IMG/VR virus record: IMGVR_UViG_3300048798_000032
Coordinates: 1 to 64,000 of that record
DNA from: a virus
DNA: 64,000 bases
Reading direction: 5' to 3' (one strand)
Shown: piece after piece, positions 3,533 through 46,385 of the stretch
Layout of the letters: every line of letters starts with the position of its first letter
Numbering within the stretch: the first letter of the stretch is position 1
Translations under genes and position numbers: made by a program
The notes under the pieces: generated by a model
The model's input: the letters and a program-made list of their open reading frames with translations, nothing else
Databases searched by the model: none
Told to the model about the DNA's origin: nothing

Positions 3533-3645
3533 GCGGGAAGGCCGGTAGCTCAGTTGGACAGAGCGCCGTGTGGCCAGCCAAATGCGCAAGCGGCGAAGCC
3601 TGCGATCGGCAGATGCGGGTTCAAGTCCCGTCCTGGCCTTCCCGC
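3533..3645 (+). ncRNA. tRNA-like RNA with extended acceptor stem and expanded anticodon domain
   Basis: TAGCTCAGTTGGACAGAGC D-arm; GCGGG-TTCAAGT-CCCGT T-arm; 13-bp terminal stem GCGGGAAGGCCGG/CTGGCCTTCCCGC; no 7-nt anticodon loop, no CCA. Confidence 0.7.
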
Positions 3646-35784: not shown

Positions 35785-36887
35785 CCACTCCTCCTGCCCT
35801 CACCGTCCAGCAGCGCCTGACCCTGGCGAAGTGGCTGCTGGAGAGCATCGGCAACCAGCGCAAGGACGACCTTGTGCCAGCAAGCCGGGACGAGATGCCC
35901 TCTGGCAGCCGGGTAGCGGCCATGTTCGGCGGCAAGGTCGCCGCCTGGGTGGTCATGCCGAAGCCGAAGCAGCCGGGCGCTTATGTGTCCGACCCGGTGA
36001 AACTGCTCGCCTGGGTGCGGGAGAACTTCCCGCACCAGGTCGTGCCGGTGACTGAGGTCGTGGAGTCACCGGAGCTGATCGAGCACCTGCGGAAGCACTT
36101 CCCCTCGGCGCTCAAGGTGACCGACACGGTAGAGACCTACCTGGTCTCCGACATCTGCACCGGACTCAAGGACCGCGGTCACTTCTACGACGGCGACGAG
36201 GAGAAGGTCTCCGACATACCGGGGATCACGCTGCCCGAAGCTGAGCCGCCAGTCCCCACGGTCACCCTCACCGACGACGCGGAGGCGGTCATCGGTGAGG
36301 CGTGGCGCGGTGGGGCCATCCCCGTAAGTGAACTGCTCGCACTGCCCGGCGGCGGTGAACCTGATGCCACCTGAGTACACCACTCCCGAGGACGGCGACC
36401 TAGTGCTCTGGGCGGCGTGGGCCGAGGACCATCTGGACTGTGCGGGCTGGAGCTTCGACGGCCACGCGCTCACCTGCGCATGCGGAGCGCCTATCCCGCT
36501 CGCCGCTGAGGTTTCGGCATGACCGCCACCGAACAGCGCTCCGTACACGATCCGGTCGCTGTCGAGCAGAAGATCGAAGAGACGAAGAACCGGATCGCCA
36601 AGGGCGTCACGATCATCACCGAAGCCGAGAAGAAAGCCAAAGCGGCCCGGACCAAGTTCGACTTCGAGTTCGCTCTTGCGATGGGCCGTGCCACAGGTCC
36701 AGCGACCAGCCACAAGTATCAGGCGACCGTCGACACGATTGAGTGGCGGAAGATCGCCGAGGGTGCCGAGATCGCGTTCAAGCACGCTGAGCGCACCGCC
36801 CACGCGCTGGACAAGGAACTGTTCGCGTGGCAGTCGATTCTCAACTCCGTCCGGTCGATGTACAGCGCCGTGGGGGTGCGCGGGTGA
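35781..36887 (+). other. coupled hypothetical genes (35781-36374, 36364-36522, 36519-36887 coiled-coil)
   Basis: overlapping start/stop codons. Confidence 0.6.
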
Positions 36888-40038: not shown

Positions 40039-40967
40039 AGCGCAACCTCTTCAGTGCCGCTTCTGTCCTCGCCGCGCTTTCGTTTATCGCCACCATCTAC
40101 CGGAAGGCTGCCCGGCCACATATACCCGGATTGCCTGAAGATGGTGAGCCTCTTTCCGGTCAGGAAGTACGGCGCTGGATAGGTATCCGGCAGACCTATG
40201 AAGCAGTGGATATCAGTGAACCCGTAACCCCGCACCGAGGGGAGGGTAGATGAGCGCCGCATTGAAGCCGCCCTTTCCCGCCGGGGGGATTATCCGTTAC
40301 TGCCCTCATTGCAGGCAGCCATGGCCGGTACCTGATACCTGCGAATGCGATCACGGCAAGACAGTTCACAACCTCAGCAAGGACGGGAAGCAGCGCACAG
40401 AGTGCTCTGTGTTCACCGTGGAGGGTCCTTGCGGGTGCACGGAATACACCCCTGCGGAGGTGCCCAGTGGCACTTGAAAGTGACATCCGCATGGCAGACG
40501 AGGCAGGCAGGTCGCGGTCAACCCTGGACAGCAGTTACGCCGAGGCACGGGCACTTGCGCTGATCGGGAGTGCGGGGACTACGGCAGAGCAGGACCGGGC
40601 AGCGGCGCTCACGCTGGCGGAATGGGCACGTGACGGAAACGAGTTGGCGGACTGGCTCGAAATGTGCGGGCTGGCACGACCGAAAAGCGCGGCGACGGGA
40701 GTAAGGTCATGAGGCAATTCTATCGTAAATGGCGCTGGATTGCACTGGAGAATGCCTCCACTATGCTACCGTGGGAATGGTGGCGAGTGCGCGTTGACCC
40801 ATTCTGCCGAGGCTGGCAGAAAGCCGTGCGGAATGGGGAGATAGGGTGAAGAAAGCCCTTCCCGTTGCTGCGGGTTTGACCATTCTGGCCGCCATTTTCG
40901 CACGTTCCGGCTATCGCTGGGCATTGCGCCATGACTGTCTTGGCTGCGAATTGTGGAATGGTGCGGC

Positions 40968-42638
40968 ATGACCCCTCTTAATTCCCATTCACCCGGCCGG
41001 GTAGCTGGGGAAGGGTACCCGGCCGGTGGAGGGCCCGGCGTCAACCTGGATCTGTTCGGCGGCCCTGGTGGGTGGGCCGAGGCCCTGGCCGCGCTCGGCC
41101 TGACTGAGATCGGGATCGAGCTCGACGCGGCAGCGTGCGCGACCCGCCGGGCCGCAGGCCACCTAACGATCCGGGCCAGCGTCGCGGCCTTCCCGGTTGA
41201 GCAGCTCGCCGGGCGCGTGCGCGGGCTAGCAGGCAGTCCCCCTTGCACCACTTTTTCGCAGGCTGGCCTTGGTGCGGGTGTCAGGGTCATGGAGATCCTC
41301 GCTCTGGCCATCCGTGACGCGCTCGCTGGCCGCAAGACAAGGGCGCGGCGGATGCGGGAGATGGCCCGTGCGCTCCGTGCCGCCTGGTGGACCGACGCGA
41401 AAGTCAAACTCGATGCTCGGCTCACCCGCGCGGAACGGTCGGCGCGCATCTGGAAGGCCGTCAGGTCGGCCGCCCTGGTCATCGAGCCCGCGCGGTACAT
41501 CCACGCGTGCCGTCCCGAGTGGATAGCGCTGGAGCAGGTTCCCGCCGTCCTGCCGCTGTGGCAGGCGTACGCCACCGAACTCCGCAAGCTGGGCTACTCG
41601 GTATGGGTGGGCAAGCTCAACGCCGCAGATTTTGGTGTGCCGCAGACCCGCGTCAGGGCCATCCTCATCGCCAGCCGGGTACGGAAGGTCACGGTGCCGG
41701 AGCCGACCCACTACGACCCGCGCAAGGGTGATCAGCTCTGGGGTGAGCACTGGGTCAGCATGGCCGAGGCGCTCGGCATAGGCGCGACCGGCCGCCCGGC
41801 ACCCTCCGTGACCGCCGGTGGAACGTCTACCGGGGGTGCCGAGCCGTTCGCCCGCGGTGGCCGGGGCGCGCTCGAGGCCGAGCGGGACGCCGGCCGGTGG
41901 GTGCTGCGGATGGACACCCAGGCGCACGCGTCCGTCCGTGACGTGACAGCGCCAGCGCCAGCGCTGAAGATTGGCCATTCTGCTGCGGATTGTCAATGGG
42001 TGCTGCTGCACACCAACCGTGACCAGCGTCCCGATGGCACCCGGCAGACCGCAGACCCGCATACCGCGCCCGCGCCCGCGCCCGCGCTGACGAGCAAATC
42101 GGGTGGCCAGTGGGAACTGCACCGCAGCAGGGGCGCGAGTGTCAGCCGCCGCGACCATCCCGCCGATGAGCCAGCACCAACGATTACCGGCGCTGGCGGC
42201 AAGCCTGGCGGCAACCTGACGTGGAAACTCCGCAACAACAACAACAACAACAACGCGTGTGAACGGTCAACCGATGAACCGGCTGGGACGTTGTTCTTTG
42301 GCCAGCGGTCCAACTGGGCGGCATGGGTGACCGAGCGCCCGGCAACGACCGTTCAGGGCGACCCGCGGATCGGCCGGCCGGGGCACAAGGGCCCCGAGTC
42401 CGGTGGCGAGTCACAGTTCGCCGTGGACTCCGTCCGCATCACGGTCACCGAGGCTGCGGTACTCCAGTCGTTCAGGCCGGACTATCCGTTCCAGGGGACT
42501 AAGTCGGCGCGGTTCCGGCAAGTGGGCGACGCCTGGTGCCCGCTGGCGGCTATCGCTGTGGTCGGCGTGGCTACCGGTATCGACTGGCGCCCGGTCGCTG
42601 AGAAGTACACCGAGTCGTGCCGGGAGCAGGCCGCATGA
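40968..42638 (+). CDS. orphan DNA cytosine-5 methyltransferase
   Basis: DLFGGPGG, GSPPC, EQV, GVPQTR.R, QVGDA; long variable region with PAPT repeats; start uncertain. Confidence 0.88.
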   Translation: MTPLNSHSPGRVAGEGYPAGGGPGVNLDLFGGPGGWAEALAALGLTEIGIELDAAACATRRAAGHLTIRASVAAFPVEQLAGRVRGLAGSPPCTTFSQAGLGAGVRVMEILALAIRDALAGRKTRARRMREMARALRAAWWTDAKVKLDARLTRAERSARIWKAVRSAALVIEPARYIHACRPEWIALEQVPAVLPLWQAYATELRKLGYSVWVGKLNAADFGVPQTRVRAILIASRVRKVTVPEPTHYDPRKGDQLWGEHWVSMAEALGIGATGRPAPSVTAGGTSTGGAEPFARGGRGALEAERDAGRWVLRMDTQAHASVRDVTAPAPALKIGHSAADCQWVLLHTNRDQRPDGTRQTADPHTAPAPAPALTSKSGGQWELHRSRGASVSRRDHPADEPAPTITGAGGKPGGNLTWKLRNNNNNNNACERSTDEPAGTLFFGQRSNWAAWVTERPATTVQGDPRIGRPGHKGPESGGESQFAVDSVRITVTEAAVLQSFRPDYPFQGTKSARFRQVGDAWCPLAAIAVVGVATGIDWRPVAEKYTESCREQAA

Positions 42639-42694
42639 ACAATCCCATCCCTCTATCCCCTCTAAGAGCAAAGCTCAGCGAGGAGGGGAGAGGG

Positions 42695-42898
42695 TCAGGA
42701 GTCGGCGGAGACCTTCTCGAACTCAGCCTGATAGCGGCGCACCTGCTCGCGGGTCAGCTTGAGCGTGGCCGCGATGTCGGCCTGCGTGATGTCGCTGCCG
42801 CGGGCCTCCACGATGGCGCGGCCGAGCGCGAGCCGGGTCTCTCTCACCTGCTCGCGGGCGGCCAGATAGGCGTCTCGCGCAGCAACGACGTTGGCCAT
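42695..42898 (-). CDS. small HTH regulator
   Basis: ITQADIAATLKLTREQVRRY; divergent from the repeat locus. Confidence 0.75.
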   Translation of the reverse strand: MANVVAARDAYLAAREQVRETRLALGRAIVEARGSDITQADIAATLKLTREQVRRYQAEFEKVSADS

Positions 42899-42968
42899 GG
42901 CACCGGTCACCTTCCGATTGTCACATGGATGTGGCCTAGGGCAAGTATGCAACATAGACGGGTGCCAC

Positions 42969-43005
42969 GCAACATGTTGCACTGCCACATACTGTGTGGC
43001 ATAGT
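42969..43005 (+). promoter_or_regulatory. promoter with overlapping palindromes
   Basis: TTGCAC-17-CATAGT; GCAACATGTTGC (42969-42980) and TGCCACA-N5-TGTGGCA (42983-43001). Confidence 0.7.
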
Positions 43006-43010
43006 CGGGA

Positions 43011-43367
43011 CCAGCGTGGCGAGGCCCGGCGGTGCGGGGCATGACCGGTCGCGGCTATGGCTAGCCCGGGTTGGGCGAGGCATGGATTCACCAGGGCGGA
43101 TGGCATACAGCCGGGTTCGGGTCCCGGTCGCCCACGCTGGGCTTGGCAGGCCAGTGGCATCGCTGGCCCCGGCATGGTTCGGCTGGGCGCGTCATGGCTC
43201 GCCAAGGCCGGGCTAGGCAAGGAACTACGGCCGACAGGAAGGCACTGGGGTTCGAGCCCTCAGCGGTCACGCAGGGTGCGGCAGGGCAGTGCCAGGCAGG
43301 CCCCGGCGCGGCTCGTTATGGCTGGGCACGGCAGAACCCGGCTTGGTATGGCCCGGCAAGGCAAGGA
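43011..43367 (+). ncRNA. NN-GGY pentamer array, tracts 1-3 with two mini tRNA-like elements
   Basis: tracts 43011-43086 (15 pentamers), 43138-43223 (17), 43273-43367 (19; 14 with GGY); elements 43094-43136 and 43229-43271. Confidence 0.8.
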
Positions 43368-43386
43368 CGCAACGAAAGGGAGAGCG

Positions 43387-43959
43387 ATGGACTTCCGGAT
43401 CACGATCAAGGGCACGGACAGCTTGCTGATGCACAATGCGCGGCTGGCCAATCCGCTCGACCCGGCCGCGAAAGCGGTCAAGAAGCTCACGGGCAAGCGG
43501 AACAAGACCGATGACGACTACGAGGAACTCGCCCACGTTGAGTGGCAGGGGTCGTTCTACTTCGATCCCGACGTCGGCCCGTTCATCCCCGGCGACAACA
43601 TCTGGCGTTCGCTCTATGACGCGGCCAAGAAGCACAAGAAGGGCCCGCGCATCAAGGAAGGCGTGTTCATCGCCACCAGCATCAACCCGATCGCCTATGC
43701 GGGTGCGCGCAGCCTGGACGCGCTGTGGGCTGACGAGAACTTCAAGCACTTCGCCTCGGTGAAAGTCGGCACGGCGCGGACCTCCCGCTGCCGCCCGATG
43801 TTCCGCCAGTGGAAGGTCGCAGCCGATGGCGTGCTGGACACGAATGTCATGGACCTAGCCGAACTCCAGCAGGTTGCCGAGACGGCCGGCTCACTGATCG
43901 GGCTAGGGGACTGGCGCCCGCGGTACGGCCGGTATGTGGCCGAGGTGGAGAAGGTCTAG
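43387..43959 (+). CDS. stand-alone Cas7/RAMP-like protein (190 aa)
   Basis: GAAAGGGAG RBS; FRITIKGTDSLLMHN strand, PFIPGDNIWRSL, C-terminal G-loop GSLIGLGDWRPRYGRY. Confidence 0.75.
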   Translation: MDFRITIKGTDSLLMHNARLANPLDPAAKAVKKLTGKRNKTDDDYEELAHVEWQGSFYFDPDVGPFIPGDNIWRSLYDAAKKHKKGPRIKEGVFIATSINPIAYAGARSLDALWADENFKHFASVKVGTARTSRCRPMFRQWKVAADGVLDTNVMDLAELQQVAETAGSLIGLGDWRPRYGRYVAEVEKV

Positions 43960-43967
43960 GTCTCACC

Positions 43968-44268
43968 TGGGCGTGGCGGGGCGGCGCAAGGCAATCCCAG
44001 GCTTCGCGGGGCGTGGCCGGACAGTGCACTCCTGGCCAAGGCAGCACCAGGGCTTGACAGGGCATTCAGGGTGACCGGCAGGCATCAGGGTTCAAGCCCC
44101 TGACACCCGCGCAGGGTGCGGCTTGCCTGGGCGAGTCGGGCCTGGGCGCGGCCATGCGAGACCGGTCACGGCCGGGCAGTACCTGGCTAGCCGAGGCAAG
44201 GAAGGGCGACATGGCAGACATCAGGGTCCGAGTCCCTGACGCCCACGCTAGGCATGGATACGCAAGAC
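43968..44268 (+). ncRNA. NN-GGY pentamer array, tracts 4-5 with two mini tRNA-like elements and a short stub
   Basis: tracts 43968-44063 (19), 44113-44202 (18); elements 44069-44111 and 44204-44247; stub 44249-44268. Confidence 0.8.
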
Positions 44269-44282
44269 GGAAGGAATCAGGA

Positions 44283-44843
44283 ATGGCAGACAGGGCACCA
44301 TTCGAGCCCATCGGAGAACAAGCCCGGTGGCGCGTGATCTATGAGGCACTGAAAGACGTCCCAGTGGGCGAGACGATTACCTACGAGCGTCTCGGGACTG
44401 TTCTCGATCTTGACCCGAAGGACGACCGGAGCGTCATTCAGCAGGCCATGCACCGCGCAGCCTACGAGTTGGAGACGCAGGACAAGCACGCGGTCGACTC
44501 GGTGCGCGGCATTGGCTACCGCGTCGTAGAGCCTGTAGAGCACATGGGCCTAGCGGTCAGGCAGCAGAAGCGTTCCCGCAGGGCCTTGGAGCGCGGCCAG
44601 TCCAAGGTTGTCAACGTGGACCTCACTGGCATGGAACCGGAAATCCGCAAGGCGTTTGAGGTGCTAGCGACCGGGTTCGCACTTCAGGCCGACTTTAACC
44701 GCCGCATCGAGAACCGGCAGGCGCGACTGGACCGGGCACTGCGTGAGATCAGCGACACGCAGGACACCGACCGCAAGCACAGCGACGAGGAGATCACCGA
44801 ACTCCGCGAACGGCTGGCGCGGCTTGAAGCGGGCACTACCTGA
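44283..44843 (+). CDS. accessory protein, winged-helix-like N-terminus plus coiled coil
   Basis: VPVGETITYERLG...SVRGIGYRVV; heptad-rich C-terminus. Confidence 0.65.
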   Translation: MADRAPFEPIGEQARWRVIYEALKDVPVGETITYERLGTVLDLDPKDDRSVIQQAMHRAAYELETQDKHAVDSVRGIGYRVVEPVEHMGLAVRQQKRSRRALERGQSKVVNVDLTGMEPEIRKAFEVLATGFALQADFNRRIENRQARLDRALREISDTQDTDRKHSDEEITELRERLARLEAGTT

Positions 44844-44850
44844 GTCTTCT

Positions 44851-44905
44851 GGGGCAACGCGTGGCTGGGCACAGCTAGGCGAGTCCAGGCGTGGCGCGGC
44901 ATGGC
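44851..44905 (+). ncRNA. NN-GGY pentamer tract 6
   Basis: 11 in-phase pentamers, 8 with GGC. Confidence 0.7.
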
Positions 44906-44931
44906 AACTACAAGCGGGAAGGTGGCCTTAG

Positions 44932-45894
44932 TTGGCCCGCATCCGGAGCATCAAGCCCGAGGCGTTCACGTCAGAAACGCTGGCCAGCCGCCATGTTCAT
45001 GCGCGGTGGACGTTTGCCGGGCTGTGGTGCTACGTGGATGACGAGGGTCGCGGGCTGGCGAATCCCGGTCTTATCAAGGCTGCCGTTTGGCCGCTAGATG
45101 ACGACATTTCAGTAACCCAGGTGGGCGCATTTCTGGATGACCTTGAAGCCGCCTATGTGATCTGCCGCTACGAAGTTGACGGTAAGCGATACCTGCATGT
45201 CGTCAACTTCGGGGAGCACCAGCACCCGAACCGGCCGCTCCCCAGTAAGTTGCCCGCCTGCTCACGGAGGACTCACGGAGGACTCAGTGAGCAGGCAGTA
45301 CGCACTCATCCGGAAGGCCCTGGCGGTGCTCCTGGCACCCCGGCGGCATCTTCTGAGGCCACGACCACCGAAACCGGGATCCAGGGCGACATAGGCGCAG
45401 GTCAAGACCCACTCACTGAGGACTCAGTGAGTGGTCACGGAGTTGTTAATCCAAAGCCGTCCGGTACCCCTCCTACTCCTCTCCGTTACGAACAAGGAGA
45501 AGGAGATGGAGGGGGAGATGGAGTTCAGCAGGCTACGCCTGCTGCCGCGAAGGACTCGCGGCAGCTCACGGTCACGCAGCGCTCAAAAAGGCTTACCGAC
45601 GCCTATGCCGAAGCCGAGCCGATGTGCAAGTGGCCGGCCGTGAACACCGCCGTCATCCGGGCAATCAAAACCGAGAAGTACGCCGACGAGGAAATCCGCG
45701 ACGCCCTGCTGCGAATGGCCAAGGACGGCACGGGCGTGACCATTGAGTCGCTGCGGGTCGAGCTGGCCGGCTTCGGCAAGCGTGGCTCTGGCCAGCAGTC
45801 CGCTACAAGCCAATCCACGGGGGCCGACCGTGCCCGTGCTGCCCGTGAGGCGGGCCAGCGTGTTCAGGCAATGCTCGAAGGAGGGAACCGGTGA
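44932..45894 (+). CDS. phage replication initiator-like protein
   Basis: MARIRSIKPE, GLWCYVDDEGRG, RYEVDGKRYL..NFGEHQ; internal GAGGACTCA repeats. Confidence 0.75.
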   Translation: MARIRSIKPEAFTSETLASRHVHARWTFAGLWCYVDDEGRGLANPGLIKAAVWPLDDDISVTQVGAFLDDLEAAYVICRYEVDGKRYLHVVNFGEHQHPNRPLPSKLPACSRRTHGGLSEQAVRTHPEGPGGAPGTPAASSEATTTETGIQGDIGAGQDPLTEDSVSGHGVVNPKPSGTPPTPLRYEQGEGDGGGDGVQQATPAAAKDSRQLTVTQRSKRLTDAYAEAEPMCKWPAVNTAVIRAIKTEKYADEEIRDALLRMAKDGTGVTIESLRVELAGFGKRGSGQQSATSQSTGADRARAAREAGQRVQAMLEGGNR

Positions 45895-46385
45895 ACGCTG
45901 CCGAGATCGGGGACCTGCTCGGCTTCGCCGCGCTCTACGACAACCGCAAGGCGTCCGACCCGGATGTCATGGCTTGGCTCAAGGCCATCGGTGATCTGCC
46001 CTATGCGGACTGCGAAGCCGCGATTGCCGCGCACTACGGCGACAGCACCGAGCGCGTCATGCCGGGCCACATCCGCACGCGGGTCAAGGCGGTCCGTGCC
46101 GAACGTCTCGCCCGGACTCCACTGGCCCCTCCGGCCCCATCACTCACCGAGCAGCCGTCGCTCTACCGGGAAGCCCTGCGCCGGCAGGTTCAGCGCCTCG
46201 CTGACGGGTTCGCGGTCCCGGCCGCCATCAAGGGCGCACCGGGGGACGGGGAGCCGCCAGCGGAGTACGTGGCCGCACGGAAGGCCCCGCCTGACGCCGA
46301 GCCACCGAAGCCGGATCCGCAGGCGATCGCCCGCGAGCAGGTGGCCGAATCCCGCAAGGAACGGCGGGAGGGGTGGCCGTCGTGA
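45891..46385 (+). CDS. putative helicase loader/inhibitor
   Basis: YDNR...AW...IGDL.Y......AAHY.....MPGHI; follows initiator. Confidence 0.55.
   Translation: MNAAEIGDLLGFAALYDNRKASDPDVMAWLKAIGDLPYADCEAAIAAHYGDSTERVMPGHIRTRVKAVRAERLARTPLAPPAPSLTEQPSLYREALRRQVQRLADGFAVPAAIKGAPGDGEPPAEYVAARKAPPDAEPPKPDPQAIAREQVAESRKERREGWPS

Follow-up and report, generated by a model that had tools for sequence, protein, structure and literature searches.

tRNA-like elements between the guide tracts of a type II-like VIPR locus in a peat actinophage

A minimal system of RNA-guided DNA binding, VIPR was first described in 2026 and may predate CRISPR. Its protein, Vipr, is an ancestral RAMP protein of ~20 kDa, vap is an accessory gene, and each guide (vrRNA) is built of 9-16 YNNGG units and closes with a structured 3' tail that does not vary (10.64898/2026.04.26.720920). 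The NN dinucleotides of the vrRNA pair with DNA, and one base is skipped per unit (10.64898/2026.04.26.720920). The type II VIPR of Escherichia phage SUSP1 is covered by three sources (10.64898/2026.04.26.720920, 10.64898/2026.04.26.720927, 10.64898/2026.10.15.759431); its structured 3' tail is retained on the mature vrRNA and caps the filament (10.64898/2026.04.26.720920, 10.64898/2026.04.26.720927). The VIPR preprints report pseudoknot tails, staggered arrays, and hammerhead-interspersed arrays, the hammerhead ribozymes being found between the vrRNAs of types I and V (fig. S19, 10.64898/2026.04.26.720920). How multi-guide VIPR precursors are cut has been worked out for the ribozyme and staggered arrays only.

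The window analyzed here is a stretch of 64,000 nucleotides, positions 1 to 64,000 of the IMG/VR virus record IMGVR_UViG_3300048798_000032. An initial annotation, made from the letters alone, had described four mini tRNA-like elements that punctuate guide tracts in this window, and had proposed that host tRNA-processing enzymes replace Cas6 to release or protect individual guides.

Identity and layout of the locus

Positions 43018-44910 are a type II-like VIPR locus of a peat actinophage. It encodes a RAMP protein (Vipr) and a DNA-binding protein (vap1-like) and contains six tracts of GGC-NN pentamers, the guide tracts (vrRNAs). Because the Vipr homology, the vap gene, and the pentamer tracts match published VIPR, the guide tracts of the initial annotation are real and serve a RAMP-based system; that system is not new, however, but one already published (10.64898/2026.04.26.720920). 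The features are listed below, with the elements numbered e1 to e4.

42899..43017, + strand: divergent control region of lower G+C, between a small HTH gene (42695-42898, minus strand) and tract 1; sequence reading
43018..43093, + strand: vrRNA tract 1, ~15 pentamer units (GGC-NN) whose phase slips by 1 nt near 43058; 3' end GGCATGGATTCACCA
43094..43134, + strand: element e1, including the discriminator-like A 43134; covariance-model match of 54 bits, E 5.5e-9
43135..43228, + strand: vrRNA tract 2, opening with CGC in phase with the GGC units after it; middle irregular
43229..43269, + strand: element e2, including A 43269; G.U in both stems; 48.7 bits, E 9.4e-8
43270..43369, + strand: vrRNA tract 3, 20 in-phase units from CGC-AG, with no element after it; runs into the vipr ribosome-binding site
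43387..43959, + strand: vipr, 190 aa, RAMP/Cas7-like; phrog_4652
43970..44068, + strand: vrRNA tract 4, starting 10 nt past the vipr stop codon
44069..44109, + strand: element e3, including G 44109; 55.6 bits, E 2.4e-9
44110..44203, + strand: vrRNA tract 5, opening CGC-AG-GGT-GC-GGC
44204..44245, + strand: element e4, with a 12-nt linker and the loop TCCGAGT, including A 44245; 55.8 bits, E 2.1e-9
44246..44282, + strand: short remnant (CGC TA GGCAT GGATA ...) and vap ribosome-binding site; no full tract after e4
44283..44843, + strand: vap1-like accessory gene, with a winged-helix DNA-binding N-terminus and a coiled-coil C-terminus; phrog_5926
44853..44910, + strand: vrRNA tract 6, 11 in-phase units, without an element; upstream of a replication-initiator-like gene (44932-45894)

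The true start of vipr is the ATG at 43387, inside an over-long ORF (43057-43959). Gene 43387-43959 had no Pfam match and matched phrog_4652 with an E value of 1e-55. Its product was 36% identical over 186 aa to the characterized Vipr of SUSP1 (BLASTP, E 1e-40), and a tblastn comparison with the SUSP1 record KT454805.2 gave an E value of 7e-31. The AlphaFold (AF2) model had a mean pLDDT of 91. Foldseek matches to this model at E ≤ 0.001 were CRISPR effector complexes, mostly Csm3 and type VII Cas7; the best had an E value of 4e-5 and a TM score of about 0.5, and the top matches were all Csm3/Cas7. VIA-align gave Z values of 10.2 to 8 against Csm3, Cmr4, type VII Cas7, gRAMP domains, and Csf2. 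As modeled, Vipr is a small single-RRM RAMP protein with a Cas7 fold. In SUSP1 the residues of the thumb and G-loop that hold GGY are R136, the aromatic residue at 176, and R177 (10.64898/2026.04.26.720927). In our alignment of 28 Vipr sequences R136, W176, and R177 (SUSP1 numbering) were invariant and aligned with the SUSP1 motif RP..GDWRPR, of which the GDWRPR G-loop was also invariant.

The vap gene matched phrog_5926 (E 7e-12) and, weakly, the Pfam family DNA_binding_1. Its similarity to the SUSP1 gene downstream of vipr was weak (BLASTP, E 1e-5 over a GxGYRVVEP motif). The vipr-vap pair was also found in Gordonia phage MakoManhole, where the vap homologue is annotated as a DNA-binding protein, and in Mycobacterium phage LittleE. 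We compared 145 loci that encode Vipr homologues, some viral and others in the genomes of bacteria of many phyla. At nearly all of them the sequence beside vipr was 50-79% self-identical at lags of 5 and 10, vs. 20-30% at other lags, and the periodic sequences read as runs of NNGGC, NNGGT, or NNGGA.

In the window, GGC spacings of 5 and 10 nt occur around and between the elements. Chains of in-phase GGY were found on the + strand only, and within the 103-kb genome they were confined to the locus except for one chain of 7 units at 36284. [quoted passage not shown] About one-third of the trinucleotides in this phage's tracts are non-GGY, and several tracts have phase slips; some tracts may therefore be decaying, and not every tract need be active. 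Target scans found no natural targets of the tracts, and a search of IMG/VR with three exact 10-unit patterns gave zero matches. Three other readings were dropped: the tracts as an origin with iterons, once the VIPR identity was established; the tracts as protein-coding sequence, because pentamers cannot hold a reading frame and because of the same identity; and the locus as CRISPR, again upon VIPR identity.

The distances from e1 to e2 and from e3 to e4 are 135 nt each, and the two intergenic regions align nearly gap-free. The six tracts and two genes apparently share one precursor transcript. No promoter-like sites were found between the tracts of the window, and no intrinsic terminator (GC hairpin plus T run) was found in 42600-46000, where the elements run into RCGC and G-rich tracts. 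The region 42899..43017 is the presumed promoter/operator of the array-vipr-vap transcript; it contains inverted repeats of the TGTGGCA/TGCCACA type and has a comparable layout in locus L002, and a consensus scan of it gave no sigma-70 site.

The sequencing runs that contain this DNA are DNA runs of peat and lake metagenomes. Contigs of four runs had zero differences at 42900-44950, contigs of other peat samples being identical, and so supplied no natural variation.

Structure, covariation, and tRNA likeness of the elements

The four + strand elements are each built from an outer stem of 5 bp, a linker of 11-12 nt that includes GG, a further stem of 6 bp, and a 7-nt loop; the outer stem is followed on its 3' side by an unpaired purine and then CGC. 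The loops are TTCGGGT (e1), TTCGAGC (e2), TTCAAGC (e3), and TCCGAGT (e4). All of these parts had been given in the initial annotation, and all were present on our reading of the sequence, as follows.

e1, 5' half, + strand: GGGCG 43094-98, linker 43099-109, GCCGGG 43110-15, TTCGGGT 43116-22
e1, 3' half, + strand: CCCGGT 43123-28, CGCCC 43129-33, A 43134, CGC 43135-37
e2, + strand: stems and loop 43229-43268, A 43269, CGC 43270-72
e3, + strand: stems and loop 44069-44108, G 44109, CGC 44110-12
e4, + strand: stems and loop 44204-44244, A 44245, CGC 44246-48

With RCGC included, the full limits are 43094-43137 (e1), 43229-43272 (e2), 44069-44112 (e3), and 44204-44248 (e4); the ends reported earlier (43136, 43271, 44111, and 44247) were each one base short of the full RCGC.

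The elements matched no Rfam family. ARAGORN found no tRNA in the window and did not call the elements, and 42600-45000 contained no match to the Rfam tRNA model (RF00005) even at E 10. The best Rfam match, to the c-di-GMP-II-GCG model, was rejected as the identity of the elements, its score of 20 bits (E 2.4) being far under the gathering score. For the hammerhead ribozyme there was no Rfam match at the gathering score in the window, nor at E 10 in the region. A scan of the 103-kb genome for T-arm-like hairpins gave few in all; e1 to e4 were among them, and three others were tRNA genes called by ARAGORN at 65-71 kb.

The claim that the stems covary was borne out in the window itself, where the stems of e1 to e4 differ by compensatory changes. 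Beyond the window, a scan for T arms with an outer stem revealed this architecture beside vipr in many phage and prophage loci of actinobacteria, among them L002 (seven copies), MakoManhole (three), and LittleE (four). A covariance model across homologous loci, suggested in the initial annotation as a check, was built from 44 copies and searched against 565 kb. It gave 63 matches representing 56 distinct sequences, with the best E values down to 1e-10, and every match was co-oriented with vipr. The four copies of the window scored E 2e-9 to 9e-8 in this 565-kb search. In the whole 103-kb genome e1 to e4 were the only strong matches (next best, E 0.04). In five bacterial genomes (26 Mb) all matches lay inside a vipr locus, and real tRNAs did not score.

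Over the 56 copies, 92% of stem cells were paired, vs. 52% or less with the partner column slid; because the copies were gathered by structure-aware tools this percentage is partly circular, whereas the variety of pair types and the E values are not. Both-sided changes were found in 10 of the 11 stem pairs. A further pair, absent from the search model and missed in the initial annotation, joins a linker base to the last base of the T loop. It was Watson-Crick in 30 of the 32 copies with a GGCA linker, with all four pair types represented, a level of pairing reached by 0 of 10,000 shuffles. The neighboring C:G pair was kept in 31 of these 32 copies, and e1 to e4 have both pairs. The stems contain 25 G.U as against 9 A.C; this excess and the single orientation indicate that the element is an RNA on the gene strand.

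The single-sequence folding energies of the elements were no better than those of shuffled sequences (z from +0.26 to -0.94), so the support for the elements comes from comparison between copies and not from thermodynamics. Folds no stabler than shuffles would suit a DNA-level or non-functional origin, such as tRNA gene remnants, att-like recombination sites, or chance hairpins. We consider such an origin scarcely credible: it is contradicted by the compensatory changes in both stems and by the tertiary pair in the 56 copies, as well as by the restriction to one strand, the preference for G.U over A.C, and the E values. At the level of sequence comparison, the four elements are established as real, conserved, covarying RNA structures tied exclusively to vipr.

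The acceptor/T-arm likeness noted earlier held throughout the family. G53:C61, T54, C56, and R57 were present in 56 of 56 copies, T55 in 51, and A58 in 49. The GG of the linker, placed where the D loop would offer G18 and G19, was kept in 49 and 51 of the 56 copies at its two positions. The outer stem and T stem add up to 11 bp in 33 copies and 12 bp in 12, split as 5+6, 6+6, or 5+7, and a purine follows the outer stem on its 3' side in 48 of 56. There is no D arm, anticodon arm, or CCA, only the 11-12-nt linker between the outer stem and the T stem. Judged by these sequence features, the element mimics one half of a tRNA, the acceptor/T-arm half, without being a tRNA. No true tRNA was found as a separator in 120 related loci; an 85-nt "tRNA-Glu" call in locus L015 coincides in part with an element and is probably an artefact.

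An acceptor/T-arm minihelix is accepted by both RNase P and RNase Z; for these two enzymes, as for the CCA-adding enzyme, it is the smallest substrate. Natural tRNA-like processing signals include mitochondrial tRNA punctuation, the mascRNA of MALAT1, the tRNA-miRNA transcripts of MHV68, and the C4 RNA of phages P1 and P7, and synthetic tRNA-gRNA arrays exist. The phage's own genes for tRNA-Pro, tRNA-Gln, and tRNA-Asn encode no CCA, which indicates that substrates without CCA are usual in this host.

A complete T-arm signature with a discriminator-like purine would also be expected if the element had another tRNA-linked role, as a decoy for a host defence that targets tRNA or as a substrate for CCA addition or modification, with its position being incidental. 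This is very improbable, because the elements are confined to vipr loci, where they always lie between or beside tracts, have neither an anticodon arm nor CCA, and are missing from many sibling loci.

Position of the elements and their proposed role in releasing the guides

The Vipr tree placed 24 of 24 element-bearing loci in one clade of 38 rows (support 98/95), in which the organisms, where known, are all actinobacterial. Only one covariance-model match lay outside this actinobacterial clade, and it was weak (L066, E 0.02). Occurrence of the element across the clade is patchy and requires at least eight changes. With its filters switched off, a second-round model detected neither an element in 14 actinobacterial sibling loci nor divergent copies in 47 other loci including SUSP1 (L146). 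The element-less actinobacterial siblings have single tracts, or a GC-rich hairpin following each tract; the tails of SUSP1 and other proteobacterial loci differ from the element.

In-phase GGY averaged 6.8 per 60 nt upstream of the elements and 7.5 downstream, vs. a background of 1.9; this enrichment on both flanks shows that the elements sit between tracts, and they are located exactly where the ends of neighboring guides must form. The downstream junction is strict. The next tract takes as its first unit the CGC that follows the purine, since 236 of the 400 GGY within 55 nt downstream were in phase with it (20% expected). The RCGC of the initial annotation, in which this had been missed, is thus a discriminator-like purine plus the first in-phase unit of the next tract.

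Such a register between the 3' end of the element and the downstream units could mean that the element forms part of the vrRNA downstream of it and sets the place of the first Vipr protomer, a role like that of the 5' handle which a crRNA derives from its repeat. Two arrays that begin with an element and lack an upstream tract (L005:1646 and L028:2106) fit this arrangement. We nevertheless regard a 5' handle as improbable: a downstream tract is missing after e4 and after at least five other elements, tracts 1, 4, and 6 have no upstream element, and the published polarity is that of a 3' tail (10.64898/2026.04.26.720920).

The polarity of the tested system, in which the tail lies 3' of the tract and caps the filament, agrees better with a retained 3' cap. 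The element would then be the actinobacterial counterpart of the SUSP1 pseudoknot tail, protecting the 3' end of the vrRNA and marking where the Vipr filament stops or starts; its tRNA likeness would reflect reuse of a stable T-loop/elbow fold, and the ends would be made by general RNases (RNase E, RNase J, or exonucleases). Several observations point this way. A tract lies directly upstream of 54 of the 56 elements, and about six arrays end with an element vs. the two that begin with one. The linker/T-loop pair gives a compact, pseudoknot-like fold, as in SUSP1, and GGGTGGATGG opens the SUSP1 vrRNA1 tail and recurs on the 5' side of several elements. The upstream junction, however, is loose. 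The upstream tracts have no preferred phase, and an A/U-rich spacer of variable length, after an end resembling GGCAGGGGAT, joins them to the element, whereas the SUSP1 tail follows its tract directly. Tracts 3 and 6, and whole sibling loci, manage without the element, and a cap leaves the universal T-arm bases, the purine discriminator, and the near-constant stack unexplained. We therefore hold the retained cap, the strongest of the alternatives, to be possible but doubtful.

The reading we prefer, which on the sequence features we judge evenly poised between right and wrong, is that the elements are punctuation read by host tRNA-maturation enzymes, which would cut the guides apart. The GG linker, docking on the T loop, would stand in for the D and anticodon arms. 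RNase P, by cutting where the outer stem begins on its 5' side, would free the 3' end of the upstream guide, and a cut of the RNase Z type after the unpaired purine would make the 5' end of the next guide, with CGC-NN as its first unit. The element would be discarded or kept on one guide; this, like the enzymes involved, we infer.

Punctuation is favored by the full T-arm signature, the near-constant stack, the purine discriminator, and the start of the next guide one base past this purine. It is also favored by the sibling loci, which have hairpins or nothing in the slot of the element, by the phage tRNA genes that encode no CCA, and by the lack of promoters and terminators between the tracts. 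That a cutting module can occupy this slot has a precedent in the published VIPR arrays with interspersed hammerheads. Other features argue against the tRNA enzymes: the stack is mostly 11 and not 12 bp, the outer stem is 5 and not 7 bp, the base before the stem is not U, and the linker/T-loop pair is not a feature of tRNA and could point to a self-contained fold. In addition, the SUSP1 tail stays on the mature vrRNA as a cap, and an RNase P cut would remove such a cap. In the window, no element follows tracts 3 and 6 and none precedes tracts 1, 4, and 6; other routes for making ends must therefore exist anyway. That tRNA enzymes "replace" Cas6, as initially worded, holds as an analogy only: the comparison of roles stands, but VIPR never had Cas6, and other arrays use hammerheads or staggered ends.

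More broadly, actinobacterial VIPR arrays may be natural tRNA-punctuated arrays from which RNase P and RNase Z excise the modules, giving each vrRNA a defined first unit; from the sequences compared here we place this tentative generalization a little below an even call. The excised mini-helices may receive CCA or have a role of their own.

Comparison with known systems

The system itself is known; the tRNA-like array or tail layout is new relative to the searchable VIPR literature. In our literature search the VIPR preprints were silent on tRNA-like elements and on tRNA, RNase P, and RNase Z alike; nothing relevant emerged on guide arrays of a natural tRNA-like kind; and a paper on cluster J mycobacteriophages mentioned neither the elements nor the gene pair. 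If the punctuation reading is true, guide maturation can be handed to the universal tRNA enzymes of the host. This would be a third, host-dependent route of VIPR maturation besides those of the ribozyme and staggered arrays, would parallel in nature the engineered tRNA-gRNA arrays, and would account for the release of guides that lie within the vipr/vap mRNA. For multiplexed guides in high-G+C hosts (e.g., Mycobacterium and Streptomyces), the element of ~41 nt would be a compact processing module of natural origin. Two cultured phages, Mycobacterium phage LittleE and Gordonia phage MakoManhole, carry the element, so the question is directly testable.

The closest system is the type II VIPR of SUSP1. 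Like it, the present locus is phage-borne, has a homologous Vipr with a vap1-like gene directly downstream, has pentamer tracts on both sides of the genes, and has a structured element after most tracts. The SUSP1 tail, however, is a 40-nt AT-rich pseudoknot that directly continues the tract and reads as a hairpin with its loop paired to the final units, whereas the element described here is an acceptor/T-arm mimic closed by an outer stem, with a variable spacer upstream and the next tract immediately downstream in register. The tracts are also longer (up to about 20 units) and less regular than those of SUSP1.

With the hammerhead VIPR arrays the locus shares a module between successive vrRNAs of one precursor, cutting being predicted in the present case; the hammerhead cleaves itself, whereas the tRNA-like element would depend on the RNase P or RNase Z of the host. 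Cas6-cut CRISPR repeats are similar in that a repeated structured element lies between the guides of a RAMP-based effector. The present locus differs from CRISPR in having no Cas6, Cas1, Cas2, or spacers, in having pentamer repeats as guides, and in that its element is a tRNA half and not a Cas6 hairpin.

As in natural tRNA-like signals and tRNA-gRNA arrays, the elements are flanked by RNAs to be released. With the tRNA minihelix they have in common a coaxial stack of 11-12 bp, the T-loop signature, a GG for the elbow contact, and a purine discriminator. They differ from a tRNA in their outer stem of mostly 5 bp and the extra Watson-Crick pair between linker and T loop, and in lacking the D and anticodon arms and CCA.

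Pairing between the linker and the T-loop

In the alignment of element copies (A5), the last base of the T-loop forms a Watson-Crick pair with a base of the linker in 30 of the 32 copies whose linker is of the GGCA type, and four different pair types are represented. A conserved C:G pair adjoins it. In the four mini elements (e1 to e4), which separate the guide tracts, the pairing was located as follows:

43099-43122, and the equivalent parts of e2 to e4: linker/T-loop pairing (A5 columns 20-21 with 36-37)

The second linker type, GGTC, is accompanied by the loop TTCGACT; this combination suggests that elements of that type use a different pairing register, of 3-4 bp.

tRNA genes and tRNA calls

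None of the three tRNA genes of this phage (Pro, Gln, and Asn; genome positions 65028-65219 and 70854-70934, outside the window) encodes CCA. The four bases A-CGC come after the tRNA-Pro gene, as they do after the mini elements. In the related locus L015, ARAGORN reported an 85-nt "tRNA-Glu" (2196-2280) that borrows its T arm and 3' strand from a mini element; this call is probably false, and it demonstrates that mini elements can mislead tRNA finders. Separately, Rfam called a 100-nt tRNA at 3540-3639 of the window, where ARAGORN was silent. The score of this call, 32.4 bits, barely exceeds the gathering score, and the call may represent a tRNA that carries an insertion or has a long extra arm.

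Guide tracts and their surroundings

In the tracts of this phage (43018-43369, 43970-44203, and 44853-44910), approximately one trinucleotide in three is not GGY, the forms found being TGC, GAC, GTC, GCC, GTT, AAC, and CGC, and several tracts contain 1-nt phase slips. Both irregularities may represent tolerated variants, staggered guides, or decay. Upstream of the VIPR locus lie the following features:

40953-42638: C-5 cytosine DNA methyltransferase gene (561 aa), immediately before the HTH gene and the VIPR locus
42695-42898, minus strand: HTH gene (67 aa)
42899-43017: divergent region with repeated TGTGGCA/TGCCACA half-sites, between the HTH gene and the array

The divergent region is likely an operator governing the VIPR transcript; HTH gene, divergent region, and array are arranged alike in the related locus L002. 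In Mycobacterium phage LittleE (L006, 2054-4004), a vipr-vap pair with tracts and four elements is located between the tape-measure and minor-tail genes. The vipr-vap stretch is on the strand opposite to those genes, and looks like an inserted cassette.

Likeness to the SUSP1 tail and to sibling hairpins

The vrRNA1 tail of Escherichia phage SUSP1 begins with the 10-mer GGGTGGATGG (L146, 1690-1702), which in several actinobacterial elements (L008, L012, and L014) constitutes the 5' strand of the outer stem plus the start of the linker. The shared 10-mer may be inherited from a common ancestor, reflect a contact with Vipr in both, or be a coincidence in sequence this rich in G. In sibling actinobacterial loci that have no tRNA-like element (L019, L020, L021, L016, and L013), a GC-rich hairpin, often enclosed by CATGG...CCATG, is found directly 3' of each tract. 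Such a two-stem layout is reminiscent of the tRNA-like element with its outer and inner stem.
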